Shown one piece after another: positions 1 through 52,408 of a stretch of DNA of 62,355 nucleotides. Source of the stretch: an uncultured Tepidisphaeraceae bacterium (GTDB taxonomy: Bacteria > Planctomycetota > Phycisphaerae > Tepidisphaerales > Tepidisphaeraceae); contig CAZMXI010000004.1 of assembly GCA_964570205.1 (NCBI GenBank), positions 1-62,355 on the forward strand, given 5' to 3'. The translations under genes and the position numbers were made by a program. Below the pieces are notes generated by a model, which was not told the origin of the DNA, made no database searches, and saw only the letters and a list, made by a program, of their open reading frames with translations. Within the stretch, counting starts at the first letter, position 1, and every line of letters begins with the position of its first letter.

Positions 1-134
1 CGCAAGCCTAACATGCGCCGTACTGCGCTACGCCTGGATTGAGGACGCTCTAGGAGAGCAGCAGGCAGTATTCACACGTTGGACTACCACAAGCCGATGA
101 TGTACCCTAGAGGTAGAGGCAAGAAGCGGACCAC

Positions 135-1235
135 ATGCTAACGCGCGTTGAAATCACGAACTATCGAGGCTTCAAGCAGTATCAGCTTGCAGGTCTGGCT
201 CAGGTGAACCTTTTGGTCGGCAAGAATAACAGCGGCAAGACCGCTCTCTTGGAGAGCATTCACTTGCTTGCGTCGGGAGGCGATCCTTCAGTCCTTGCCA
301 ACGCCGCTTCGCAGCGAGGCGAGGTTGTTCCCAGCGGCAGGGATGAGCCATCATTTCTCGATGTTTCACACTTCTTCTATGGGCACGATGTCCGGCCAGC
401 CTCGAAGTTTTCCATTAAGAGCGATAATGGACTCCCACCCGTGGCAGTGGAGGCCGTCCCACTAGGAGACACCGAACCCAGCCCAGGGCTGTTCGAGCAT
501 TCACGCACTTTACGTCCTGCCTTTGCCCTGAAGATCGAGGGCGGCCGATCGCGGCACAAGTCACAAAGAACGTTCTTCTTGTCCGAAGAAGGCGCTCTTC
601 TCCTCGACCCGCGCCGCCAAGTTCGTAGATACATTGGTGATGAGCTAGCCGAAGGTCCCCCGATTGTCTTCATTACACCTAACTCTCTTGTTCCCGCCGC
701 ACTGGGCCGCATGTGGCGTCCCATTATTAGTGCAAAGAAAGAGGCGGAGGTGTATCAGGCAATGCGTATTCTGGAGCCAGAGCTTGAAGACCTGGTCTTT
801 GAGCCTGGCGATTCAAGCTACCGGCCGTATAATTCGCGAGCGGGTATCGTCGTCGGCTTCAGAGGCGACCGGCGCCGCGTACCCTTGGGCAGTATGGGTG
901 ATGGTATGCGCCGGCTGCTCGCGCTGGCCATTTCGCTCATTCATGCTAGAGGCGGGTTCTTGATCATCGACGAGATTGACACCGGGTTCCACTACTCGAT
1001 CATGGCCAAGATGTGGGAGTTGGTCGTGGAGACAGCCAGCGCTCCAGGCACGCAGGTCTTTGCCACTACACACAGCTCAGACTGCATCAAAGGCTTGGGC
1101 ATACTCTGCAAGCGCAAACCGGAGTTGCAGGCCAAGGTCGCCGTGCACAAGATTGAGCGTAATATCGAGAGGAACATCGCGTTCACCGGTGCCGATGTCC
1201 TGAACGCCGTTGAGCAAGACATAGAGATCCGGTAA
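135..1235 (+). CDS. ABC/SMC-type AAA ATPase (AAA_21/AAA_15-like, OLD/AriA/AbiLi type)
   Basis: 366 aa. Walker A GKNNSGKT (res 29-36), signature-like LGSMGDGMRRLLAL (251-264), Walker B FLIIDEID (275-282) and ATTHS (310-314). Lower GC than its surroundings. Confidence 0.8.
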   Translation: MLTRVEITNYRGFKQYQLAGLAQVNLLVGKNNSGKTALLESIHLLASGGDPSVLANAASQRGEVVPSGRDEPSFLDVSHFFYGHDVRPASKFSIKSDNGLPPVAVEAVPLGDTEPSPGLFEHSRTLRPAFALKIEGGRSRHKSQRTFFLSEEGALLLDPRRQVRRYIGDELAEGPPIVFITPNSLVPAALGRMWRPIISAKKEAEVYQAMRILEPELEDLVFEPGDSSYRPYNSRAGIVVGFRGDRRRVPLGSMGDGMRRLLALAISLIHARGGFLIIDEIDTGFHYSIMAKMWELVVETASAPGTQVFATTHSSDCIKGLGILCKRKPELQAKVAVHKIERNIERNIAFTGADVLNAVEQDIEIR

Positions 1236-1882
1236 TGCCTGACTCTCTTGAAATGCCCGCACTGTACGTTGAGGGGGATTCCGACCTCCATACGATCGTT
1301 CACCTTGTCGGCCGACATGGAATCAAGCTCGACAAAGACATTGGGCCGGTCATCATCAAGAAGGCCAAGGGCGACCGTGGTGTCTTGGAGTCCATGCGTA
1401 CAGCTACCCGCGCCAGCACACTTCGCCCCGTCGGCTTCATCATTGATGCGGACAGGTCCGTTTCTCATCGCTGGCAGTCAGTGCGTGAGCATCTGGACGG
1501 CCTGGGCTTGATGTTCCCAAAGATGGCGCCTCTGGAAGGCTTCATCGGAGACTCGACGGAGACACGGTCGCGTGTTGGGGTGTGGATCATGCCTGACAAC
1601 AGAACTGACGAAGGCCGACTGGAGGATTTGGTGCAGACGTTGGTTCCCGCAAATGACAGCTTGATCGGACTGGCGCGATCTTCAACAGACCAGGCAATCA
1701 AGTCAGGTAGCAGGCTTCCCGCACAGGATCGGATTAAGGCGGAACTGCACTGCTGGCTGGCATGGCAGAAAGAACCCGGGTTATCGTTTGGCACGGCCCT
1801 CAAGGTGCGCTTCTTCTGCCACGACAGCGATATCGCCAATGCCTTCGTGGCTTGGTTCAAGCAGTTGTATGGCCTCGCCTGA
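1235..1882 (+). CDS. TOPRIM-like small protein (DUF3226/DUF4435/DUF4276-like), partner of the upstream ATPase
   Basis: 215 aa. Its ATG overlaps the ATPase stop (TAATG at 1233-1237). It carries YVEGDSD (Glu13) and IIDAD (Asp71/Asp73), then WIMPD..GRLEDLV, an E...DxD layout consistent with TOPRIM. Confidence 0.65.
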   Translation: MPDSLEMPALYVEGDSDLHTIVHLVGRHGIKLDKDIGPVIIKKAKGDRGVLESMRTATRASTLRPVGFIIDADRSVSHRWQSVREHLDGLGLMFPKMAPLEGFIGDSTETRSRVGVWIMPDNRTDEGRLEDLVQTLVPANDSLIGLARSSTDQAIKSGSRLPAQDRIKAELHCWLAWQKEPGLSFGTALKVRFFCHDSDIANAFVAWFKQLYGLA

Positions 1883-2153
1883 ACTTCTCGCAAGACAGGG
1901 CACGCTCACCCGTGTCACTTCTGGTGCGGGTTGTATGCGCGGGATACCCCAGAAAGTCAGCAGGTCACTCCCCGCCCCCGCAGATCTCATGCGCCAGGTC
2001 ATCACCCGCCGGCTTTCCCCGCAGCCGCTGTAGACCGCATATTGCGTACAAGCTCCCCCTTTTCCAGTGCCTGAAATTCCCGCTGACGTCAGATAATCCT
2101 TTTCCGCGCACCTGTTTGAGCCGACATATGCTTATAGGTTACGGAGATACTGC

Positions 2154-3326
2154 GTGCTCATAGTGCCCCTGGAAGAAGCTCGTCCCGGCATGACGCTGGC
2201 CGCGCCCGTTGCGCACCCGCAGAACCCCAACCAGGACCTGTTGCGCAGCGGCTACACACTCGAGCCCACCGTGCTCCGCCGGATGTGCGAGATGGGCATC
2301 CCTTTTGTATACGTCGATTTTCCGGGCCTTGAATCGCTCGACAAGCACCTGGCTGTCCACCTCAGCCCCGCTCGGCAGGCGGTCTATCGCCAGATCCGCC
2401 AGTCCATCACCGAAGTCCAGCGGCAGACCCGCCCCGCCATCCCGTATGACGCCTATGTCAGCAACACCCGAGCCCTCGTCGACACCCTGCTCACCCAGGG
2501 CCAGAACCCCATCTACCTCGACCAGATGTCACGACAGGGCGGCGACGCCGTCGCCCACGCCGCGGCCGTCGCCCATCTATCCCTCCTCCTCGGCATCAAG
2601 CTCGAACAGTATCTCATTGACCAGCGATCTCGTCTTCCAGCCTACCGCGCCCGCGACGTCGTCAACCTCGGCATCGCCGGCATGCTTCACGACATTGGCA
2701 TGGGGAAACTCCCCGAGGAACTTCAGAATCACGCCGAGCCCGATCCACCCGAGGATGACAAGCGACTGGCCGACTGGCAATCCCACGCCCAGATCGGCTA
2801 TGACCTGATCCATAACGGTGTCGAAGCTTCGGCCGCCGCTGCCGTCTATCAGCACCATCAACACTACGCCGGCGGCGGCTTCCCCGCCATGATTTGCACC
2901 GATGGCACCCATCGGCAGATGGCCGGCGAGAAGATCCACGTCTTTGCGCGCATCATCCTGTGCGCCAATCTGTACGATCGGCTGTCAGCGCCCGCGCGAG
3001 GTCAACCGCGCCGGACCAACCGCCAGGTCATGCGCCTGATGCACGGCACATATGCCGACTGGTGCGACCCGCAGGTCCTTCGGACGTTACAGTCCATCGC
3101 CCCGGCTTACCCGCCTGGATCCAAAGTGCGCCTTTCGGACGGCACCCGCGCCGTGGTCATGGATGTGAACCCCCATGCCCCCGGCCAGCCTATCGTCCGT
3201 CGCCTTGACAAGGACAACTGGACCCTGTTGTCCAAATCCATCGATCTCGCCGTCCCCGAAGCTCCGAAGATCGTCGATGATACCGACGATGACGCCGAAT
3301 CCCCCTCCCATGCTTACGCCGCTTGA
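2154..3326 (+). CDS. HD-GYP-type HD-domain phosphohydrolase with a degenerate GYP motif
   Basis: 390 aa, GTG start with GGAGA 8 nt upstream. LHDIGMGKLP (HD at res 179-180). The expected HHExxDGxGYP reads HHQHYAGGGFP (res 234-244). Confidence 0.8.
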   Translation: MLIVPLEEARPGMTLAAPVAHPQNPNQDLLRSGYTLEPTVLRRMCEMGIPFVYVDFPGLESLDKHLAVHLSPARQAVYRQIRQSITEVQRQTRPAIPYDAYVSNTRALVDTLLTQGQNPIYLDQMSRQGGDAVAHAAAVAHLSLLLGIKLEQYLIDQRSRLPAYRARDVVNLGIAGMLHDIGMGKLPEELQNHAEPDPPEDDKRLADWQSHAQIGYDLIHNGVEASAAAAVYQHHQHYAGGGFPAMICTDGTHRQMAGEKIHVFARIILCANLYDRLSAPARGQPRRTNRQVMRLMHGTYADWCDPQVLRTLQSIAPAYPPGSKVRLSDGTRAVVMDVNPHAPGQPIVRRLDKDNWTLLSKSIDLAVPEAPKIVDDTDDDAESPSHAYAA

Positions 3327-3346
3327 TCGGCTGCAAGCTCCGCTCT

Positions 3347-3712
3347 CTACCGCTGCCTCTGCCCGGCCTCTCGCCACTCCACGCGTTTGGCGTCGCCCCA
3401 GAGGCCTTCCAAATCGTAATAGTCGCGGGCGCTCTCATTGAACACGTGAACGATCACATCCACGAAGTCCACCAAGATCCACGTGTCCCCTTCATAGCCG
3501 GCCCGGGACATGGGCTGCCACTGACGCTCGGCCGCCAGTTCTTCCACCTCGTCCACCACGGTTCGCATCTGCCGGGCGCTCGTGCCGGTGCCGATGACGA
3601 AAAAATCCGTCACGGGCGATGACTTTCGCACATCCAGCACGACGACGTTCTGGCACCGCGTGTTGGCCGCCAGCCGGGCGGCTTCGATCGCAAACTCCCG
3701 CGCTGCCGTCAC
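3347..3712 (-). CDS. rsfS: ribosome silencing factor RsfS (iojap family)
   Basis: 121 aa. VVVLDVRKSSPVTDFFVIGTGTSARQ...WILVDFVDVIVHVF...YYDLEGLWGDA is the typical RsfS pattern. Confidence 0.9.
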   Translation of the reverse strand: MTAAREFAIEAARLAANTRCQNVVVLDVRKSSPVTDFFVIGTGTSARQMRTVVDEVEELAAERQWQPMSRAGYEGDTWILVDFVDVIVHVFNESARDYYDLEGLWGDAKRVEWREAGQRQR

Positions 3713-3841
3713 CCGGTCAGCCCGAGCGGGCTCTTGGGTCTGGGTCTTGATATTCCACCTCCGGCGGTTGCGCCGTCTTTCCTTTCCGCAAATCCAGTTC
3801 CGTACACCGTATTGTGAATTATACTGCCGAATTCGGGCAAG

Positions 3842-4231
3842 TTATTCGCCCCGCATTCCGATTGCGCTGGCCGTGGCATGGGTCACGATATGGCTGATGC
3901 TGACGTGCCAGCGGCTGATGCCCAGCCCGGTCGCGATCCGCAGGCACTCGCCCGTGAGGGCCACCTTGGGCTGGCCCGACGGCTCGGAAATGATCTCGAT
4001 GTCCGTCCAGGCGATGCCCCCCCGCCAGCCGGTGCCCAGCACCTTCAGAACCGCCTCTTTGGCCGCGAACCGCCCGGACAGGTGCTCGATGTAGCGCTTG
4101 GGGTTGCGGGAGCAATAGGCCTGCTCCGATGCCGTGTAGCATCGGTCGAGAAACCGCTGCCCGTGATCCTCCAGCAGCCTGGCGATCCGGGCGGTCTCGA
4201 CGATGTCGATGCCGTGACCCAGGATGGGCAT
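3842..4231 (-). CDS. acpS: holo-[acyl-carrier-protein] synthase
   Basis: 129 aa. ILGHGIDIVE...FAAKEAVLKVLGTG are the AcpS hallmark motifs. It lies 3 nt downstream of lysC. Confidence 0.9.
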   Translation of the reverse strand: MPILGHGIDIVETARIARLLEDHGQRFLDRCYTASEQAYCSRNPKRYIEHLSGRFAAKEAVLKVLGTGWRGGIAWTDIEIISEPSGQPKVALTGECLRIATGLGISRWHVSISHIVTHATASAIGMRGE

Positions 4232-4234
4232 TGG

Positions 4235-5476
4235 CTACCTGGCCTTGTCCAGCTCGAATGCCTCGTGGACGATCTGAAGGGCCTTGGCTCCGTCATCCCT
4301 GCCGATGATGCAACTGATCTTGATTTCGCTGGTGGTGATGTTCTGGATGTTCACGCCCGCCTTCGCCAGGGCGCTGAACATCCTGTTGGCCACGCCAGTG
4401 TGGACGCGCATGCCGACCCCGACCACGCTCACCTTCGCCAGATCGCCCTGGAAGGTGGCCTGCGTGCCCGCGTTCAGGTCGCCGATGATCCGATCCATCA
4501 CTTTCTTCAGGTCGGCCAGGTCGCCCTTCTCGACCGTGAACGAGATGTTGGCCGTATTGTCATCCATCACGTTTTGGATGATGTCATCGACCACGACGTT
4601 GGCGGCGGCAATGTCGCCGAATATCTTGGCGGCGATGCCCGGGCGGTCCGGCACGCCCTTGATGGTGACTCGAGTCAGGTCCTTCTTCAGTGCAGCGCCG
4701 GATACGACAATGTGTTCCATGTTCCGTGTCTCCGCGACGATCCAGGTCCCTTCGTTTTCGTTCTGGCTGTTGCGGACGTGGATCGGGACGTTGTATTTCT
4801 TGGCGAATTCGACAGCGCGGGTCTGGAGCACGCTGGCGCCCAGCCCCGACAGCTCCAGCATCTCGTCATAGCTGATGCGGTCGATCTTGCGGGCGTTGGG
4901 CACGATGCGCGGGTCGGCCGTGAAGATGCCGTCGACGTCGGTGTAGTTCTCGCACACGTCGGCCTTCAGCACAGCGCCCAGGGCGACCAGCGTCGCGTTC
5001 GAGCCGCCGCGGCCCAGCGTCGTGTAGTCGCCCTCGGGGGTGATCCCCTGGAAGCCGGCCACGATGACGATCCTGCCCTGGTGAAGCTGCTCGAAGATGC
5101 GCTGCTTGTTGATCGACTGGATGCGAGCCTTGCTGAATGCCTCGTCGGTGATCAGCCCGATCTGCCCACCGGTGAAGCTGATCGCCTGATGGCCCTGGGC
5201 ATGGATGGCCATTGCCATCAGGGCGATGGTGATCTGCTCGCCGGTCACCAGGAGCTGGTCCATCTCGCGCTTGGGCGGGACGGTGTTGCGGCCGCCGTGC
5301 TGGCAGACCTGGTTGGCCAGGTCGATCAGCTCATCGGTCGTATGCCCCATGGCGCTGACGACGACGGCGACATGATGGCCCTTCTCCTTGGCGGCAATCG
5401 CCCGACGGGCGGCCAGGTGAATGCGTTCGGCGTCGGCGACGCTGGTGCCGCCGAATTTCTGTACGATCAAGCCCAC
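4235..5476 (-). CDS. lysC: aspartate kinase
   Basis: 413 aa, GTG start. GLIVQKFGGTSVADAERI...VVVSAMGHTTDELI, with C-terminal ACT-like repeats. Confidence 0.95.
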   Translation of the reverse strand: MGLIVQKFGGTSVADAERIHLAARRAIAAKEKGHHVAVVVSAMGHTTDELIDLANQVCQHGGRNTVPPKREMDQLLVTGEQITIALMAMAIHAQGHQAISFTGGQIGLITDEAFSKARIQSINKQRIFEQLHQGRIVIVAGFQGITPEGDYTTLGRGGSNATLVALGAVLKADVCENYTDVDGIFTADPRIVPNARKIDRISYDEMLELSGLGASVLQTRAVEFAKKYNVPIHVRNSQNENEGTWIVAETRNMEHIVVSGAALKKDLTRVTIKGVPDRPGIAAKIFGDIAAANVVVDDIIQNVMDDNTANISFTVEKGDLADLKKVMDRIIGDLNAGTQATFQGDLAKVSVVGVGMRVHTGVANRMFSALAKAGVNIQNITTSEIKISCIIGRDDGAKALQIVHEAFELDKAR

Positions 5477-5508
5477 AGTGCAACTCCATTCGTCCAGAGA
5501 AGGCGGTG

Positions 5509-5514
5509 ATTATA
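5509..5514 (-). promoter_or_regulatory. candidate -10 box (TATAAT inside the palindrome ATTATAAT) upstream of lysC
   Basis: Perfect TATAAT on the minus strand, 33-38 nt upstream of the lysC GTG. GGAG lies 7 nt before the start. No clear -35 box. Confidence 0.25.
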
Positions 5515-5560
5515 ATGACCCGGCGCGATCCCACAACGGCCGGCGTCTTGCGGCGCAGCA

Positions 5561-5594
5561 GAGCGCCGCGGCCAAACAACCCGCCGCGGCGCTC
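5561..5594 (-). terminator. perfect 12-bp GC-rich hairpin between sod and lysC (terminator-like, no U tract)
   Basis: Arms GAGCGCCGCGGC (5561-5572) and GCCGCGGCGCTC (5583-5594), 10-nt loop. It lies 27 nt downstream of the sod stop. Confidence 0.35.
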
Positions 5595-5620
5595 ATGTTG
5601 AGGCCAAGCTTCCACGCCGG

Positions 5621-6238
5621 CTACCTCGCGCTGTTGAACCTCTCCTCAGCGACTCGCCAGTTGAGGACATTCCACCAGGCTGCCAGGTAATCGGCCCGGC
5701 GGTTCTGGTATTTCAGGTAATAGGCGTGCTCCCAGACATCGACGCCGATGACGGGGAAGGCGGCATCCATCACCGGCGAATCCTGGTTGGCGGTGGAGAT
5801 GATCTCGACCTGGCCACCGCGTTTGATGAGCCACGCCCAGCCGGACCCGAAGCGGGTCATGCCGGCCTGCTGGAGCTGTACCTTGAACTGATCGAAGCCG
5901 CCGAAGGCGGTGTTGATGGCGTTGGCGAGGTTGCCAACGGGGGCGGCAGCGCGGTCTCGGGGGTCCATGATCTGCCAGAACATGGTGTGGTTGATGTGCC
6001 CGCCACCGTTGTTGCGAACCGCGGTGCGGATATTCTCGGGAACAATGGCGCAGTTGTTGGCGAGGAGGTCTTCGATGGGCTTGCCGTCGAGGTTGGGCGC
6101 GCTTTCGGCAATGGCCTTGTTCAGATTCTGTACGTAGGCCGCGTGGTGCTTGCCGTGGTGGATTTCCATGGTCATCTTGTCGATGTGCGGCTCGAGGGCG
6201 TCGGGGGCGTAGGGCAATGGGGGAAGCGTATAAGGCAT
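5621..6238 (-). CDS. Fe/Mn superoxide dismutase
   Basis: 205 aa. [30 protein letters not shown]...[16 protein letters not shown] cannot distinguish Fe from Mn type by eye. Confidence 0.95.
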
Positions 6239-6563: not shown

Positions 6564-6854
6564 CCAAGGCGCTTGGGGCGACGACGAGCACGGAGAAGCA
6601 GCGCGGCCGAGGGAGAAATCGGACCCCTCCTGCTCATCTGTTCGGGGCTCTTCGGGCACCCGTGGGCAATCTGAACACATGATGGATCGGGTACCGGTCT
6701 TTCCTTATCCCCACGGAATCCCTAGGGGAAAACCCTATGACCAAATAGTGGAATAAAGCCCGTTCACAAATACGGCGTTGCAAGCATATGCTGATTGATT
6801 GGGTTCCCCGTGATCGGGGAGTGCGGTGGTCACAGGCAGTAAAGGAAGGGTATT

Positions 6855-7595
6855 ATGAGCACTTCGCGCAAGTTGTTGTTTGCGTTTGCGGCGTCGGCCG
6901 CGCCGTTGACGGCATCCGCGGCAACCGTGGGTCCGCCGGCCTGGTTGGACGTGTCGGCAGGCGGGCAGTCACATCGATGGGAGGTCAGGGAGGGCAAGAA
7001 CGAGCATGGGATGCCGATCTGGGTGATTGACCAGTCCTCCTGGAAAACAGACGAGTTTGAGATCACGGTCTCGGCCGAACTCGATCCCGACCCGTTCATC
7101 GCTTATGGGATAGCGGTGGTGGATTTCGGGGCGCCGAGCGCGTTCGGATTCAGCTTCGGCACACCGATCGTGTCGGTGGGCACGCCGAACGTGGTGTCGG
7201 GGTCTTTGGTGGGCGGCCTGACGGATGCGACGGGGGATGGAATAGCTCTAACACCGACACTGGCGTCGGGCTTCGTGCAGGAAGCGTCGGTCAGCGCGCC
7301 GTCGACAAGCATGGGGGTGGATGTGGGCGCGGCATTGGCAGCGGGGCCGGGGGCACCGGGCGCCTTCTATGCCTATGGGCCGTATGCGACAGGTTCGATC
7401 GCGGGCCCGGGACCCGGGCCGTGGACGTTCCTGACCGTAACAACGGGGTTTTCGTTGTCGGGCGGTGGCGATGTGGCGGCGTTAACCGGATTCGCAAGCA
7501 TCGATCCGGTGGCGGTGCCGACGCCATCGGCGATGGCCGGAGGATTGGCCTTGTTGGGCGGCCTTGTGGCGTATCGACGGCGTCGCGGCCAATGA
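6855..7595 (+). CDS. PEP-CTERM sorting-domain secreted protein
   Basis: 246 aa. Signal peptide LLFAFAASAAPLTASA. The C-terminus VPTPSAMAGGLALLGGLVAYRRRRGQ is a PEP-like motif followed by a TM helix and an Arg cluster. SD AAGGAAGG lies upstream. Confidence 0.85.
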   Translation: MSTSRKLLFAFAASAAPLTASAATVGPPAWLDVSAGGQSHRWEVREGKNEHGMPIWVIDQSSWKTDEFEITVSAELDPDPFIAYGIAVVDFGAPSAFGFSFGTPIVSVGTPNVVSGSLVGGLTDATGDGIALTPTLASGFVQEASVSAPSTSMGVDVGAALAAGPGAPGAFYAYGPYATGSIAGPGPGPWTFLTVTTGFSLSGGGDVAALTGFASIDPVAVPTPSAMAGGLALLGGLVAYRRRRGQ

Positions 7596-7622
7596 GGCTG
7601 GTTGTGCAATCGGCTAGTTGAT

Positions 7623-7657
7623 GACCCACGGAACCTGCGGGATCCGTGGGTCTTTTC
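7623..7657 (+). terminator. rho-independent terminator after the PEP-CTERM gene
   Basis: 10-bp stem GACCCACGGA / TCCGTGGGTC, 10-nt loop, followed by TTTTC. Confidence 0.6.
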
Positions 7658-7737
7658 GCGGGCGGTAAGGGAAAGGGAGGATAAGGTGGGCATCTCGGCC
7701 CGCCAGCAGTCATCGCGACGAAAGAACAGGCCGACCT

Positions 7738-8784
7738 TCAGAGGGCGGCCGGGTGGGCGGCGAGGAGTTCATCGACGACATCGCGGAGGGTGATGATGCC
7801 TTCGATGCCGCCGTATTCATCCACCACGAACATCATCTGCGTGTTCTGCTCACGGAAGGCGGTCAGGAGGCGGTCGACGGGAAGCGTTTCGGGGATGAAG
7901 ACGGCTTTGAGGGCAATCAGCGAAAGCACGCTCACATCGGCCGCATCCTCGCAAGCGGCGAGGAATTCCCGTGTGCGGATCACGCCGATGACATGATCCA
8001 GCCCGCCGTCGCATAGGGGAAGGCGGCTGTAGAGGTGCTCTTCCATGATCTCGCGGTTCTTCTGGATTGACCAGCGCATGTCCAGAGAGACCACCTCCTT
8101 TCGGGGCACCATGATCTGCCGGGCGGTGCGCTTGCCCAGGGCAAGCGTATTGAGGATCACATCGCGTTCGCGCTGATCGAGCTGGCCGTCGGCCGCCGCC
8201 TGTCTCGTCAGGTACATGATGTCCTGTGGCGTGGCCAATTCCCGCTCCATATCCTGTACTCGGCCGAGCCCAAGGGGGCGAGTCACGAGGTTGGCCAGGG
8301 CATTCATGAGCCACACGAGGGGTCTGATGAGGCGGCCGATGGCGAGGATGGGCACCGCGGTAAGGACGGCCACGGGCGGCGCGCTGCGAAGGGTCAGCGC
8401 CTTGGGCAGCAGTTCACTGAAGACCACGGTGAGAAGCGTTACCACGACGAAGCTGAGGAGCGTGGCCAGGGGCGTGAATACCACACCGGGAATATGTGCG
8501 GCCAGCGGGCCGAGCGCCGCATGCAGGAGGCGGGACATGGCAGGCTCGCCGATCCATCCGAGCAGCAGGTTGGTCATGGTGATGCAGACCTGGATGGCTC
8601 CGATGGAGTCGGCCGGCCGAGTCTTCATGGCCGACATGGCGGCGGCCGACCCGCGCCAGCCTCGTTGTCTAAGTTGTTCGATCTGGACATCACGAATGGC
8701 GACAAGGGCGTACTCGGCCGCGACGAAAAACGCGTTCATGAGGATCAACAGGGGCAGCGCCGGCAAGGAGTACTCAAGGGGCAT
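7738..8784 (-). CDS. CNNM/DUF21 + CBS-pair transporter-family protein (HlyC/CorC-like, no C-terminal CorC_HlyC domain apparent)
   Basis: Start moved to MPLEYSLPALPLLILMNAFFVAAEYALVAIR, the typical DUF21 N-terminus. Ends ...FVVDEYGGIEGIITLRDVV. Confidence 0.85.
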   Translation of the reverse strand: MPLEYSLPALPLLILMNAFFVAAEYALVAIRDVQIEQLRQRGWRGSAAAMSAMKTRPADSIGAIQVCITMTNLLLGWIGEPAMSRLLHAALGPLAAHIPGVVFTPLATLLSFVVVTLLTVVFSELLPKALTLRSAPPVAVLTAVPILAIGRLIRPLVWLMNALANLVTRPLGLGRVQDMERELATPQDIMYLTRQAAADGQLDQRERDVILNTLALGKRTARQIMVPRKEVVSLDMRWSIQKNREIMEEHLYSRLPLCDGGLDHVIGVIRTREFLAACEDAADVSVLSLIALKAVFIPETLPVDRLLTAFREQNTQMMFVVDEYGGIEGIITLRDVVDELLAAHPAAL

Positions 8785-9020: not shown

Positions 9021-10577
9021 ATGGCGACGCTGGAGCAGGTGGCCGGGCGGCAGCGCACGACGGGCATATCCGGGGCGGGGATTGCGTTGCTGGCCGCGAT
9101 AGTGGTCGTGGGGATCGCGACTTGGGTTTCATTTCTGCTGCGTAACTCGAGCGGGACATTCGCCACGTATTGGCCGCTGGCGGTGCTGGGCGTGAGCGTA
9201 GGGCTGGTGGTCACGCTGATTACGGCGGTGCGGGTGCACGCATTCGTGGCGCTGATCGTGTCGGCTATGGCGGTGGGGTTCATGGCGCGTGTGGGGGCGT
9301 TGCCTGTGCCAATGGGGATCATGGGCAAGCCTTCGCCGCTGCACTGGGTGCGGGCCATCGAGTTGACGGCTGAGGGATTCGGCGGGACGGCGGCCAAGGT
9401 GGGCATCGTAATCGTGTTGGCGGCGATCATCGGAATGTGCCTGCTGGAGAGCGGCGCGGCCGACCGGGTGGTAAGGCAGTTTCTGCGGTGGTTCGGGGAA
9501 CGCAACGGCGGATTGGCGCTGCTGGCGGCGACGTACGTGGTGTCGATTCCGATCTTCTTTGACACGATATTCATGCTCCTGGTGCCGCTGGCGCACGCAA
9601 TGTACTGGCGGACGAAGCGGGATTATCTGCTGTACATCCTGGCCATCTGCTGCGCGGGGGTGATCACGCATTCGATGGTGATCCCGCATCCCGGGCCGCT
9701 GGCCATGGCGACCGACCTGCGGATCGATCCGGGGCTGACGATCTGGGTGGGGTTGCTGACGGGGATCGTGCCCGCCATTTGCGGGTGGATGGCGGCCAAA
9801 TGGATCAATGCGAGGATGCCGGTGACGCCACCAGAGGAGACACGGGCCGCGATGGAGAGCGCGGATTCGCCCGTGAACCGGCCTGACAGCGAGTTGCCGC
9901 CGCTGTGGGCAAGCGTGGTGCCGGTGCTGCTGCCCGTGGCGCTGATCGGAGCGGCATCGTTCCTGAGCGCATTCGGGAAGGATGCTTTGCCGGGGCTGAC
10001 GGCGTGGATGACCTTCGTGGGCGACAGGCACGTCGCGTTGCTGCTGGGCACCGCGTTCGCGATCTGGCTGGTGGTGCGGCAATGCGGGTGGAGCCTGGCG
10101 CAAGCGGGTGAGCGGATCGGCCCGCCGCTGGCCATGGCGGGCGTGGTGATTCTGATCACCAGCGCGGGCGGGGCATTTGGGGGCATGCTGAAGAACGCGG
10201 GGGTGGGGCATGCGATCAAGTCGGCGGCGGATGGGCAAGGGATCAACATGATCGTTCTGGCGTGGCTGGTGGCAATCGTGATCCGAATCGCGCAGGGTTC
10301 GGCGACGGTGGCGATGCTGTCGACCAGCTCGATGATGTATCCGCTGATGAGCGCGCCCGGGGCACTCGGATGTCACCCTGTGTACATCTTCCTGGCGATC
10401 GGGTACGGGGCCGTGGGCGTGTCGTGGATGAACGACAGCGGATTCTGGCTGGTCAGCCGGTTGGGCGGCTTCACCGAGCAGCAGACGCTGAAGAGTTGGA
10501 CGGTGCTGCTGTTCGTGATCTCGGTGGCCGGGCTGGGAACGACACTGGTGATGTCGATGCTGATCCCCGGCGTATGA
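9021..10577 (+). CDS. GntP-family permease (gluconate/organic-acid:H+ symporter family)
   Basis: 518 aa, polytopic. SIPIFFDTIFMLLVPLA and ...RIAQGSATVAM are typical of GntP. Confidence 0.9.
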   Translation: MATLEQVAGRQRTTGISGAGIALLAAIVVVGIATWVSFLLRNSSGTFATYWPLAVLGVSVGLVVTLITAVRVHAFVALIVSAMAVGFMARVGALPVPMGIMGKPSPLHWVRAIELTAEGFGGTAAKVGIVIVLAAIIGMCLLESGAADRVVRQFLRWFGERNGGLALLAATYVVSIPIFFDTIFMLLVPLAHAMYWRTKRDYLLYILAICCAGVITHSMVIPHPGPLAMATDLRIDPGLTIWVGLLTGIVPAICGWMAAKWINARMPVTPPEETRAAMESADSPVNRPDSELPPLWASVVPVLLPVALIGAASFLSAFGKDALPGLTAWMTFVGDRHVALLLGTAFAIWLVVRQCGWSLAQAGERIGPPLAMAGVVILITSAGGAFGGMLKNAGVGHAIKSAADGQGINMIVLAWLVAIVIRIAQGSATVAMLSTSSMMYPLMSAPGALGCHPVYIFLAIGYGAVGVSWMNDSGFWLVSRLGGFTEQQTLKSWTVLLFVISVAGLGTTLVMSMLIPGV

Positions 10578-10684
10578 GCGGGGTCTGTCGCACGCGGAGC
10601 AGACCGTCTGGGCCGCGCCGGCGTGCGGCTTGACTGAGCATGGGGCGGTGCGATACTGGCGGGCAATTCCTTTGAGGGTCCACT

Positions 10685-12175
10685 ATGCTGAAGATGATGT
10701 TGGTGCTGGCGGCGACGGTGTGCGTGGCGGTGTCGTGCCAGTCGAAGAATGCGCCCCAGCCGACGGAGGGGGCGGCCGACGGGTGGGTGTCGCTGTTCGA
10801 CGGCAAAACGCTGAACGGCTGGAAAGCCAACGAGAGCCCGGAGACATTCAAAGTTCGGGATGGGGCGATCGTGGCCAGCGGGCCCCGAGCCCACTTGTTT
10901 TATGTGGGCGATCTGCGCACCGCCAAGTTCAAGAGCTTTGAACTTAAGGTGGACGTTAAGGCGGGGGCGGGAGCCAACTCCGGCGTCTATTTCCACACGG
11001 CGTGGCAGGACGCCGGCTGGCTGGAGCAAGGCCTGGAAGTGCAGATCAACAACACGCAGCCCGAGCATGACGGTTATTACGAGTTCAAGAAGACGGGCAG
11101 CCTGTACGGCGTGCGCAACATCTTCAAACAGCTCATGAAGGATGAAGAATGGTTCACAATGCACATCATCGTGGAAGGCGCGCGGGTGCGGGTGAAGCTG
11201 AACGATCTGCTTGTGGTGGACTACACGGAACCCGAAGGGCTGAACCGCGGCGATTCCGGCCGGCGGCGGAACCTGGGCAGCGGCACATTTGCCCTGCAGG
11301 GGCATGATCCGGCCAGCCGGGTGATGTTCCGGAATATCATGGTTCGGCCGATCGACGTGGTGTTCGGGGTGCCGGCGAGCCCCGGCGGGGAGAAATACCC
11401 ACTGGTGAAGGCGCTGAGCACGGAGAGTTTTCCGATCATCGACTTCCACTCGCACCTCAAGGGAGGGCTGACCATCGAGCAACTGCTGGCGCATTCCCGG
11501 GCAACGGGCATCAGCTACGGCGTAGCGCCCAACTGCGGGTTGAACTTCCCGATCACCGACGATGCGGGGATCGAGCAGTTCATCCAGGGCATGAAGGGCC
11601 TGCCGGTGTGGTTGGGCATGCAGGCGGAGGGCCGCGAATGGGTGCACATGTTCTCGCCGGAGGCCGTGGCGAAGTTCGACTATGTGTTTTCTGACGCCAT
11701 GACGTTCACGGATGACAACGGCAAGCGCATGCGCATCTGGATCAAGGATGAGCTGGGGGAAATCGGCGACAAGCAGCAATGGATGGACATGTACGTCGAT
11801 CGGATCGTGAAAGTGATCAGCGACGAGCCGATCGACATCTATGCCAACGCGACGATCCTGCCGGCGCCTCTGGCAAAGGAATACGACCAGCTCTGGACGA
11901 CCGAGCGCATGATGAACGTGATCGACGCGGCGGTGGCCCATGGCGTGGCGATTGAGATCGGCGCCGCCAACCGCATCCCAAGCGAACGATTCATCAAGCT
12001 GGCCAAGGAAAAGGGCGCGAAATTCAGTCTCGGCACCAACAACGCCGGCAACGAACTGGGCAGCTTGGAATACGCCCTGCGAATGGTGCAGGCGTGCGGC
12101 CTGACGGGCAAGGACATGTTCATGCCCAAGCCCGACGGGCAGAAGCCGATCCAGGTGAAGGGGTTCAAGAAGTGA
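10685..12175 (+). CDS. lipoprotein: DUF1080 (3-keto-disaccharide hydrolase-like) domain fused to a PHP/metal-dependent hydrolase-like domain
   Basis: 496 aa. Lipobox VAVSC. N-terminal domain GWVSLFDGKTLNGWK...FELKVDVK..NSGVYFH. C-terminal domain IIDFHSHLKGG...AIEIGAANRIP. Confidence 0.8.
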   Translation: MLKMMLVLAATVCVAVSCQSKNAPQPTEGAADGWVSLFDGKTLNGWKANESPETFKVRDGAIVASGPRAHLFYVGDLRTAKFKSFELKVDVKAGAGANSGVYFHTAWQDAGWLEQGLEVQINNTQPEHDGYYEFKKTGSLYGVRNIFKQLMKDEEWFTMHIIVEGARVRVKLNDLLVVDYTEPEGLNRGDSGRRRNLGSGTFALQGHDPASRVMFRNIMVRPIDVVFGVPASPGGEKYPLVKALSTESFPIIDFHSHLKGGLTIEQLLAHSRATGISYGVAPNCGLNFPITDDAGIEQFIQGMKGLPVWLGMQAEGREWVHMFSPEAVAKFDYVFSDAMTFTDDNGKRMRIWIKDELGEIGDKQQWMDMYVDRIVKVISDEPIDIYANATILPAPLAKEYDQLWTTERMMNVIDAAVAHGVAIEIGAANRIPSERFIKLAKEKGAKFSLGTNNAGNELGSLEYALRMVQACGLTGKDMFMPKPDGQKPIQVKGFKK

Positions 12176-50059: not shown

Positions 50060-50356
50060 CCGCGCGGCCGGCTCTACAGCGACCCAGTTCCCGGGCAAGA
50101 AACCCGATCGCGCCCGGCAGCGCGACCTCCGTCTCACTCCCGCTATAGCCGGAATCCGACCCTGAAAGCCTGCCCGCTCGTGCAATGCGAGCCGTACATA
50201 ATTCCGCCCTTGTCATCCAGCTCCGCTGCGCCCGTCTCCGGCACGCGCCAGCGCTGTGCCGGGGCGCCAAGTGGACCTGACGGCAGAAAATTGGGGCCAG
50301 AACGCAACCATCGCCTCAAAAAAGGCGCTGCGATGCCCGGTATCGTGAGTGTCGCC

Positions 50357-50575
50357 CTAGACCTTCGTCGGACTCATTCGGCGAACGCGTGTGGCCTTCA
50401 ATCCTTTGGGCCCCTTCTCCACCTCGAACTCGACGACCTCTCCATCGTCCAGCGTCTTGAAACCCTGGCCTTCGATCACCGAATGGTGAACCATCACATC
50501 GCCGCTTCCGTTGTCGGGAGTGATGAAGCCGTAGCCCTTCTGATCATTGAACCACTTGACCTTCCCCATGGGCAT
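50357..50575 (-). CDS. cold-shock protein (CspA family)
   Basis: [21 protein letters not shown] (RNP1) and VMVHHS (RNP2-like). The upstream part of ORF 50357..50698 was rejected. Confidence 0.95.
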
Positions 50576-51230
50576 AGCTACCCAATCCTTTCCGAACCCT
50601 GAAAAATGAGGTGTCGCTAAAGACAGTGAATCTGCGGCCCGGATGCCCGCTTCTTTGCCCGCCGCCGACCGTACCCACGAATGCGCCCTGAACGGCAAGC
50701 ACCGCCAACTATAACAGAGTTAATATATGAAATACAACATAAGCGATTCTCTCAACACCTATTGCCGCTGACCACCCCGCCATTCCGCACTTGCGCGGTG
50801 CGAAACGAGAGCCCGGCATTCACAACTGTCGATGCCCCCTTTTTGCACCATTCCGCCAGTTATCCACAATCTCTTTAGCCTAATCCTCACTTGTTCGCAT
50901 CCTGATATCCCCTACCCGCCCGCCGATAAGCCCCCTCTTGCCCATATACCCCAAACCTCACATTCACCCGATCCGCGTCCATTAGGATCCACACAAATCA
51001 TTTTCCAATAAAGTCTTATGGAGATTAACGCCACCTTTTCATTTAAGTCCATATCCACACTAAGCCATCATTCCTCAATCCGGCCCGCCTTGGATCGCCA
51101 AAGGAGCGAAACGCTCGCGATGGCTTGTCCACAGCTTCTCCACAGACACCCCGAGACCTTGATTTTCACGGCCCGGCAGCGAGACTACGCACTCGGGCTT
51201 CGCCCGCCCCAACAACCTCAGTACACCCGC

Positions 51231-51992
51231 ATGAACCTTCTTGAAACCACCAAGCTCGTCAAGTCCTACAGCGGCCGAATCGTCGTCAATGACGTCAGTT
51301 TCGTCCTGCATCAGGAGGAGATTGTCGGCATCCTTGGCCGAAACGGCGCCGGTAAGACGACCTCCTTCCGCATGATCATGGGCATGGTTCGGCCGGACTC
51401 CGGGGCTGTCGCTTTCGATGGCCAGGATGTCACCCATCTACCCATGTACAAGCGAGCCCGGCGCGGCATCGGTTATCTCTCGCAGGAACGATCTGATTTC
51501 CGTAATCTCACGGTCTGGCAGAATCTCCAGGCAATCCTTGAGACACGCAATCTCCGCCGTTCCGAGCGCAACCTCCGAGCCGAGAAACTCCTGGATCAGT
51601 ACGGCCTGCTCAAGCTCAAGAGCCAGAAGGCCGGCACCCTCAGCGGAGGCGAGCGACGTAAACTTGAAATCGCCCGCGCCCTGTGCACCGAGCCTAAGCT
51701 CATCCTGCTGGATGAGCCGTTCTCCGGGGTCGACCCTATCGCCGTGGAAGACCTCCAACGCGAAGTCAGACGACTTAAGTTCGAATTCGGCAAGAGCGTG
51801 CTGATCACCGACCACAACGTGCCTCAGACCCTCAAGGTGTGCGATCGCGCCTTGATCATCGACGAAGGCAAGAAGATCAAGGAAGGCACGCCCCGCGAGA
51901 TCATCAACGATCCCATCGTCCGAGCGGCCTATCTCGGAAACACCTTCCGTGGCGATGAGTTCGACGATCCGCCGAAGAACCCCGCCAGTTGA
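51231..51992 (+). CDS. lptB: LPS export ABC transporter ATP-binding protein LptB
   Basis: Start moved to MNLLETTKLVKSYSGR. GRNGAGKTT, YKRARRGIGYLSQE, LSGGERRKLEIARAL, ILLDEPFSGVDP. Confidence 0.9.
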   Translation: MNLLETTKLVKSYSGRIVVNDVSFVLHQEEIVGILGRNGAGKTTSFRMIMGMVRPDSGAVAFDGQDVTHLPMYKRARRGIGYLSQERSDFRNLTVWQNLQAILETRNLRRSERNLRAEKLLDQYGLLKLKSQKAGTLSGGERRKLEIARALCTEPKLILLDEPFSGVDPIAVEDLQREVRRLKFEFGKSVLITDHNVPQTLKVCDRALIIDEGKKIKEGTPREIINDPIVRAAYLGNTFRGDEFDDPPKNPAS

Positions 51993-52408
51993 GTCTTTGC
52001 CATGTCAACATTCAGGTTACGCGATGGAACGCCGTGGCTTCGGCGCGACGGCGGTGCGTTCGTCGCGGGTCGAGTGCCTGCCCAGTTCAACAGGTGTCTT
52101 GTTTGCGACAAGACGGGGTACGCCCCGCGGCGTCATGGAGCAAGCCGGTATCGTCTTGGGGCATCGTCGGATCCACCGGCAATTGCATGGTGTGTGAAAT
52201 GCATCACGGGCCTTCTTGCAAACCCCGACGGGCGTCCATAGACTCATTCGCTCAATGAGTGGGCGGCCGACTCGAGTTGGTCGTTCTCGCGAAGTTGTCG
52301 CCGAGATTACACTTGCGGAGCGCCAAGGATGTGCTGCGCTCCGTCCGGCCTATGAGGGCCGCAGAGCGAGCGCATTGCAGTTGCGGGCATCAGCTCGTGT
52401 CGTTCACA

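Follow-up and report, generated by a model that had tools for sequence, protein, structure and literature searches.

A compact ATPase–TOPRIM gene pair of the candidate defence family PDC-M38 in an uncultured Tepidisphaeraceae bacterium

Near the left end of a 62,355-nucleotide (nt) stretch of DNA from an uncultured Tepidisphaeraceae bacterium (Planctomycetota; contig CAZMXI010000004.1 of assembly GCA_964570205.1; the whole stretch is called the window below), positions 135 to 1882 are occupied by two overlapping open reading frames (ORFs), ORF1 and ORF2, which encode an ABC/SMC-head-type ATPase and a DUF3226 protein. The initial annotation, made from the letters alone, proposed them as a candidate defence module that combines an ATPase with a TOPRIM protein. 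The ORF coordinates and lengths, the TAATG overlap and all motifs that it quoted are present in the sequence exactly as claimed, and a PADLOC run places the pair among such defence-type candidates, in family PDC-M38 (A plus B). On balance, we are inclined to think that the pair is a self-contained, mobile two-gene anti-phage module of the abortive-infection type within this PDC-M38/DUF3226 family, in effect a split OLD nuclease in which an ATPase sensor controls the nuclease.

The two genes and their motifs are listed here. Conservation was read from an alignment of 38 homologues for ORF1 and counted over 141 diverse family members for ORF2; residues that are invariant or nearly so in these sets take the motifs beyond chance and mark the catalytic residues of both proteins as being under selection.

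135..1235, plus strand: ORF1, ABC/SMC-head-type ATPase, PDC-M38A-like, 366 amino acids (aa), about 41 kDa
219..242, plus strand: Walker A (P-loop) GKNNSGKT, residues 29-36; G29, N31, N32, G34 and K35 invariant
885..926, plus strand: ABC signature-like LGSMGDGMRRLLAL, residues 251-264; G252, S253, G255, G257 and L264 invariant
957..980, plus strand: Walker B and D-loop FLIIDEID, residues 275-282; L276, D279, E280 and D282 invariant
1062..1076, plus strand: H-loop ATTHS, residues 310-314; A310, T312, H313 and S314 invariant
1233..1237, plus strand: TAATG stop/start overlap, TAA at 1233-1235 and ATG at 1235-1237, one base in common
1235..1882, plus strand: ORF2, DUF3226 protein, PDC-M38B-like, 215 aa, about 24 kDa
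1271..1285, plus strand: TOPRIM glutamate motif EGDSD; E13 in 141/141, G14 in 137/141, position 17 with 136 D and 3 E
1445..1453, plus strand: TOPRIM DxD motif D71-A-D73; D71 in 141/141, position 73 with 124 D, 15 N and 2 E
1583..1624, plus strand: WIMPDN...GRLE block, W117-E130; W117, P120, G127 and E130 in 141/141, N122 in 134/141
1736..1738, plus strand: K168, candidate counterpart of the OLD catalytic lysine Bp K562; K in 139/141
1757..1780, plus strand: LAWQKEPG, family-specific motif, residues 175-182; invariant or nearly so across the family

ORF1 combines a Walker A motif, an ABC signature, a Walker B motif with the catalytic glutamate, a D-loop, an H-loop and an ABC fold, which are the elements of an ABC/SMC head. 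It matches the Pfam families AAA_21 (8.7e-24) and AAA_15 (3.4e-23). Its AlphaFold2 model (pLDDT, the predicted local distance difference test, 83.1; predicted template modelling score, pTM, 0.84) was matched by Foldseek to PtuA (7.8e-13, probability 1.0) and to Thermus OLD, retron PtuA, GajA, the heads of SMC and Rad50 and one chain from the complex of AriA with AriB, each with probability 1.0, in agreement with the SMC/ABC-type ATPase that was first recognised from its motifs. Between the Walker A motif and the signature lie about 215 residues. A canonical ABC domain already has roughly 100 residues at this place, so that the extra material amounts to about 110 residues; the distance counted in the initial annotation was thus right, but its reading as a 210-aa insertion was too generous. 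In the model, this region is strand-rich with some low-confidence loops, and no coiled coil or helical bundle is obvious. The role proposed for ORF1 is that of a sensor and regulator.

Three independent lines of evidence, from sequence, predicted fold and catalytic residues, identify ORF2 as a TOPRIM nuclease domain of the OLD type with a helical domain behind it, and it is proposed to be the nuclease effector. At the sequence level, ORF2 matches the Pfam family DUF3226 (PF11536) with 3.7e-52 and a score of 177.6 bits, where the gathering cut-off is 27; its residues 9-212 align to profile positions 3-207 of 208. When the 141 members were scanned individually against Pfam, OLD-like_TOPRIM was the sole recurrent secondary family, if a weak one (18/141, best E-value 4.5e-4), while DUF4435 was found in four members (best 0.064), Toprim in two and every other family in at most three. 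The expectation of a TOPRIM protein of the DUF3226 or DUF4435 type thus held for DUF3226 and for the fold, which is of the OLD type, whereas ORF2 has no match to DUF4435. An alignment of the family with the single P2 Old sequence by hhalign reached a probability of 10%, and the sole aligned stretch places the VEGxDD of the family on VEGKTE of Old.

The ORF2 model is of high confidence (pLDDT 94.5, pTM 0.90) and alternates strands (E) and helices (H) in the order E9-12, H15-27, E40-43, H47-60, E66-70, H76-87 and E113-118. Its best Foldseek match is the C-terminal part of Xanthomonas OLD, comprising the TOPRIM and helical region (probability 1.0, template modelling score 0.47-0.50 over the whole protein), followed by the retron Eco2 effector, a PARIS chain (8ux9_A, probability 0.47), Thermus OLD and the TOPRIM domain of RNase M5. 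In a TOPRIM domain, a parallel sheet of four strands lies between helices and carries a conserved glutamate near strand 1, a glycine behind strand 2 and a DxD motif (PMC6755086). ORF2 has all these features of the fold: E13 and D71 are invariant, conservation within the DxD motif is lowest at D73, and G46, the glycine after strand 2, is kept in 102/141 members and otherwise replaced by S, N or D.

Schiltz et al. described the catalytic set of Bp OLD (PMC6755086): the TOPRIM glutamate is E400, E404 stands four positions further on, D455xD457 comes next, E508 is found where the helical domain begins, and the catalytic lysine K562 belongs to a subsequent helix. In ORF2, E13 and D17 are proposed as the metal A/B ligands equivalent to E400 and E404. 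E130 opens helix 129-134 of the model, the first helix after the last core strand (113-118), like E508 of OLD, and K168 is situated in helix 163-176 of the helical domain, where it would be a candidate equivalent of K562. D17, E130 and K168 thereby supply what characterises an OLD-type catalytic region, in the order seen in Bp OLD and with similar spacing, and it is on order and spacing, not on superposition, that the equivalences are based. Shortly after K168 follows a motif that is specific to the family, LAWQxxPG, with L175 in 141, A176 in 136, W177 in 140, Q178 in 128, P181 in 139 and G182 in 140 of the 141 members.

The family assignment comes from the PADLOC hidden Markov models. ORF1 matches PDC-M38A (PDLC04611, 3e-69) with residues 1-366 on profile positions 1-383 of 383, and the adjacent ORF2 matches PDC-M38B (PDLC04624, 4e-42) with residues 9-212 on positions 15-218 of 220. 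ORF1 also matches AbiLi (3.4e-46), AriA (1.7e-28) and HEC-01A (about 1e-13), whereas ORF2 matches only PDC-M38B models at E-values up to 1. The core copies of PDC-M38, which are found on Acinetobacter and Citrobacter plasmids, have the same gene order and overlap as the window pair; they reach 500 and 283 bits, against 232 and 142 bits for ORF1 and ORF2, and the best sub-model for ORF2 is PDLC04624 and not PDLC04623. Judged by these profile matches, the pair is a divergent planctomycete-type member of a catalogued candidate family and not a new kind of system, and the suggestion of an undescribed variant has to be given up. PDC families were defined by "guilt-by-embedding", i.e. as genes embedded in BREX, DISARM or type I restriction-modification (RM) loci, and they were described as 145 untested candidates (bioRxiv 10.1101/2024.01.29.577857). 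Our literature search found no mention of PDC-M38 or DUF3226, and PDC-M38 is not among the systems assayed in the studies we found that test PDC or HEC candidates. The anti-phage function is hence a prediction, for this pair as for the whole family.

The family is broad. In a scan of 185,579 species genomes of GTDB, at least 596 loci were confirmed, in Planctomycetota, Spirochaetia, Acidobacteriota, Gemmatimonadota, Latescibacterota, Entotheonella, Cyanobacteria, Proteobacteria, Armatimonadota and Saccharimonadales. An exhaustive profile search gave 4,477 clusters (50% identity) at E <= 1e-3 and 1,212 at E <= 1e-30; a word-indexed search gave 69, mostly from Phycisphaerae or Planctomycetes. 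Many of the hosts are associated with sponges or other invertebrates, such as Entotheonella, Candidatus Synechococcus spongiarum, Aphanocapsa feldmannii and Candidatus Palauibacter poriticola, and so are many metagenome-assembled genomes (MAGs) of Spirochaetia, Vicinamibacterales and Longimicrobiales.

Pairing, gene junction and base composition were counted in 80 retained GTDB loci. The pairing is obligate: a full-length ORF1 homologue is located directly 5' of the B gene in 76/80 loci, and two of the four exceptions lie at a contig end. The genes overlap in 58/80 loci, by one nt in 46 and by four nt in 12, and are separated by a gap of at most 14 nt in another 21/80. The TAATG overlap of the window pair is a junction of the one-nt kind and indicates translational coupling of ORF1 and ORF2. 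Across loci, the identities of the A and B proteins co-vary (r = 0.75) with one strong outlier. In this case (L012, ERZ28505417 contig_3217, 10001-11805, and L013), an ATPase with 73% identity to ORF1 is combined with a DUF3226 partner of 234 aa that has only 40% identity to ORF2; it deviates by 4.9 standard deviations (SD) from the A/B correlation, which points to an exchange of partners through recombination. We also considered a conserved third component but rejected it, as among 150 immediate neighbours no family recurred more than twice per set of about 75 loci. In one Longimicrobiales MAG (L071), a larger second AAA_21/AAA_15 ATPase (579 aa, 6669-8405) directly follows the pair on its 3' side and may be another defence-type ATPase.

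Both halves of the pair are related to the OLD family (P2 Old and Thermus OLD, class 1; GajA, class 2; the retron-associated proteins, class 3). ORF1 is like the ATPase domain and ORF2 like the TOPRIM and helical region, with the same catalytic residues in the same order, but in OLD proteins both parts belong to one polypeptide that includes a dimerisation insert, whereas two overlapping genes are present here. Neither a UvrD-like helicase nor a retron partner was found among the neighbours of the pair loci. This kinship underlies the main rival to an abortive-infection module, namely a direct OLD- or Gabija-like nuclease in which a stable ORF1-ORF2 complex would nick or degrade invading DNA in an ATP-gated manner, with neither sequestration and release nor abortive action. 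It fits the observations that the nearest structural relatives of ORF2 are DNA-cleaving OLD regions, that the full OLD set of two-metal ligands plus lysine for processive DNA cleavage is conserved, that ORF1 resembles the ATPase domains of Thermus OLD and GajA, and that the two genes are colinear with the single OLD polypeptide, ATPase first and TOPRIM second. It accords less well with the split system PARIS, in which the nuclease is released and cuts tRNA, with a family member nested in an RNA-repair operon, and with the rarity of fusions, which are not dominant: the B proteins are nearly all stand-alone and 205-230 aa long. Such a direct DNA-cleaving complex is conceivable but on the whole unlikely, and the sensor-controlled abortive module remains our preferred reading.

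PARIS, AbiL and HEC-01 are related architectures for which the literature reports experimental anti-phage activity. PARIS likewise consists of two genes, the first of which encodes an ABC ATPase and the second an OLD-like TOPRIM nuclease; its ATPase shares a related fold with ORF1, as seen from the AriA model match and from the AriA-AriB chain (probability 1.0), and a PARIS chain occurs among the structural matches of ORF2. AriA, which has helical insertions, builds a hexameric scaffold, and the AriA-AriB complex has a 6:3 stoichiometry. When AriA senses the trigger, in an ATP-dependent manner, AriB is set free, forms a dimer and cleaves tRNA-Lys (PMC11464382). As initially suspected, the window proteins are shorter, about 41 and 24 kDa against 55 kDa for AriA and 35 kDa for AriB. 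The AriA models cover only part of ORF1 and score far below PDC-M38A, and the PARIS effector is AriB/DUF4435, whereas ORF2 matches neither the AriB models nor DUF4435.

AbiL of Lactococcus has the bicistronic layout in common with the pair, and the AbiLi model matches ORF1 strongly. AbiLii is predicted to be an OLD-like TOPRIM protein too (PMC13064643), but AbiLii models are not matched by ORF2, to which only PDC-M38B models respond; the effector thus belongs to another sequence family than AbiLii. As ORF2 matches neither AriB nor AbiLii, the pair is neither PARIS nor AbiL proper, and membership of these two systems, as considered at first, does not hold. HEC-01 (ABC ATPase plus TOPRIM; Payne et al. 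2024) belongs to the same architecture class, but the likeness is weak and confined to the ATPase, and HEC-01B models are not matched by ORF2. HEC-01 showed no defence in the first study and protection in a later one, so pairs of this architecture are capable of anti-phage activity.

The pair is compositionally foreign to the window. Its GC content is 56.8%, against a window mean of 63.0% (0.568 versus 0.630, SD 0.0187 for windows of equal size), and only 0.4% of equal-size windows are as GC-poor; GC at third codon positions is 0.64 in ORF1 and 0.68 in ORF2, against 0.77-0.885 in five neighbouring genes. The low GC content read from the first counts is thereby confirmed. After a spacer, the next gene encodes an unrelated HD-domain protein (2154-3326), and among 23 loci with orthologues of this gene none carries the pair. 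This is a more direct test of accessory nature than variable context. The pair is therefore not the syntenic, universally conserved element of native composition that would have spoken against the initial annotation, and its probable horizontal acquisition agrees with both the foreign composition and the missing synteny with the HD gene in relatives. The aspartokinase gene gave no informative empty-site test, since no synteny at all is left among relatives at 85-88% identity. The gene order of the window downstream of the pair (HD-domain protein, rsfS, acpS, aspartokinase and superoxide dismutase, 2154-6238) is kept in no relative examined, neither at 85-88% aspartokinase identity nor at 51-67% identity of the HD protein; this indicates that synteny is very low in the host lineage, which its aspartokinase identity marks as Tepidisphaeraceae-like.

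The same accessory character is seen across the family. The pair is more AT-rich than its flanks in 77/80 loci, by 6.5 percentage points on average, yet it follows the GC content of its host. In the closest relative (84% and 77% identity) it follows thiC, in another genome it lies between ispG and proS, and in Phycisphaerae MAGs (L007, 7779-11894, and L008) it is found between gap and pgk. In the two Phycisphaerae MAGs, about 76 nt separate the pair from gap, and the DUF3226 gene shares its last 11 nt or so with the start of pgk, so that transcription of the cassette apparently takes place as part of a glycolytic operon. The Vicinamibacterales chromosome OZ253576.1 has two copies, L051 and L069. 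The pair is an accessory, horizontally mobile cassette.

These data bear on the idea that the two genes are a native housekeeping pair for DNA repair or recombination, like RecF plus RecR or SbcCD. The N-terminus of ORF1 weakly matches RecF, SMC and Rad50 models, RecR also has a TOPRIM fold (PMC6755086), and the neighbours are housekeeping genes. The matches to the RecF, Rad50 and SMC models all score far below their cut-offs, the distribution is patchy (at least 596 loci in the GTDB species genomes), the pair is absent beside HD orthologues, its GC content is systematically below that of the host, and double copies as well as carriage on plasmids occur. A housekeeping repair function is thus highly improbable.

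The core PDC-M38 copies are the near-sole cargo of the 13-kb Acinetobacter plasmid pXM9F202-2-13k and of a 6.4-kb ColE-type mobilisable Citrobacter plasmid. On the Citrobacter freundii plasmid pRHBSTW-00398_4, a 193-aa gene annotated as 'tRNA modification GTPase' (2164-2745) is located directly 5' of the pair and has no PADLOC match. A DNA search of complete E. coli genomes with the Citrobacter copy found nothing, and the BFVD structure library held nothing convincing. Plasmid carriage leads to a further alternative, a selfish toxin-antitoxin (TA)-like addiction element with ORF2 as toxin and ORF1 as antidote, which would persist by post-segregational killing and hitch-hiking and have no dedicated anti-phage role. 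Apart from the cargo-poor plasmids of 6-13 kb, this would explain the compact bicistronic operon with overlapping genes, the GC content below that of the host almost everywhere and the solo insertions among housekeeping genes with no association to defence islands; PARIS itself has been described as TA-like. On the other side, a 366-aa ATPase in which every catalytic motif is invariant would be a costly antitoxin, and the family models were seeded from genes inside BREX, DISARM or RM systems. We consider pure addiction improbable, and TA and abortive-infection roles are not mutually exclusive.

A single locus hints at the substrate of such a module. In a Saccharimonadales MAG (DASRLE010000681.1, 290-6083), the only one of its kind among the 80 GTDB loci, the pair (about 1744-3479) is nested on one strand precisely between hen1 (290-1762, Hen1_L 2e-110) and pnkp (3528-6083, PNKP_ligase 5e-181). 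The genes hen1 and pnkp together constitute the bacterial RNA-repair system. Because of this one case, it might be speculated that PDC-M38/DUF3226 is a minimal split-OLD architecture (about 41 plus 24 kDa) whose nuclease targets RNA, in particular tRNA, and not DNA; we regard this as doubtful. If true, it would mirror PrrC inside its type I RM locus and imply an undescribed functional link between a ribotoxin-like immune nuclease and RNA repair, in a family that extends over many phyla.

For the anti-phage module that we favour, the following mechanism is proposed. ORF1 would dimerise head-to-tail, with the Walker A motif of each subunit facing the signature of its partner, and would be responsible for infection sensing and regulation. 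ORF2 would be the effector, a metal-dependent TOPRIM nuclease with an OLD-type two-metal site formed by E13, D17, D71/D73 and E130, assisted by K168, and the gene overlap would couple the synthesis of both proteins. By analogy with PARIS, the ATPase may physically keep the nuclease in check until ATP-dependent sensing of a phage-derived trigger takes place; the nuclease would then be released or activated, cleave nucleic acid and halt the infection. Its substrate could be tRNA or other RNA, as for AriB, or DNA, as for OLD and GajA.

Several findings weigh against this proposal. Immediate neighbours are mostly housekeeping genes (gap, pgk, thiC, ispG, gyrA, Hsp70) and not defence genes, and the variable context of the pair is weak evidence when taken alone, because in this lineage synteny is not conserved even around the housekeeping gene for aspartokinase. 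The phage genomes of INPHARED yielded no copy of the pair, and the family is nearly absent from IMG/VR, with two distant loci only; PARIS, in contrast, is a frequent passenger of phages or satellites, and PDC-M38 almost never occurs on viral contigs. An AriA-type helical insertion is not evident in the ORF1 model, so that the oligomeric architecture, and with it the sequestration model, may differ from that of PARIS. For ORF2, the Foldseek E-values are borderline (1e-3), and sequence profiles alone fail to reach solved TOPRIM structures: searches of the PDB sequences with ORF2 and the family profile returned only spurious matches to antibody chains and designed repeat proteins. Finally, the literature search found no experiment on any DUF3226 or PDC-M38 member, and the PADLOC candidates PDC-M63 and PDC-S04 failed on testing.

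If active, PDC-M38 would be a very compact and very widespread ATPase-plus-TOPRIM immune module, mostly of uncultured and sponge-associated lineages, and its small size would make it attractive for learning how an infection is sensed by ABC ATPases and how these license a nuclease. The interest lies chiefly in the breadth and small size of the family, and for the window alone the result is a routine annotation of a defence candidate. The analysis names catalytic residues, points to tractable homologues on the small Acinetobacter and Citrobacter plasmids and provides the hint of an RNA substrate.

The pair is bordered by two non-coding segments:

1..134, plus strand: upstream non-coding leader, presumed (predicted) promoter and 5' untranslated region of the operon
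1883..2153, plus strand: downstream spacer, GC 0.579, climbing to 0.64-0.66 further on; right limit of the low-GC segment

The leader has stops in all six frames, and no truncated gene enters from the left. Neither a sigma-70-like site nor another convincing promoter signal was found in it, no terminator-like site was found in the spacer, and the plausible positions around the pair yielded no promoter or terminator signal. An Rfam scan of window positions 1-2400, which include the leader, found no family, a tRNA search across the window found none, and a search for flanking direct or inverted repeats around the pair gave nothing meaningful. Elsewhere in the window, the GC content falls as low as in the pair just once, at 50200-52000 (about 0.566-0.572). 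This stretch was considered as another island and rejected, since its content is ordinary: a cold-shock-protein gene (50357-50698, minus strand), a gene for an LptB-like ABC ATPase (51018-51992) and long spacers.

The sequence to the left of the window could not be recovered. A 40-nt pattern from the window edge had no match in metagenome contigs, and the sole other contig that encodes exactly this protein, 3,704 nt long and identical in sequence, comes from an independent assembly (Logan, SRR8925802) and has its left end at window position 32. Both assemblies thus end within about 30 nt of each other, just 5' of the operon, perhaps a sign of a repeat or a strain-variable junction on the left.

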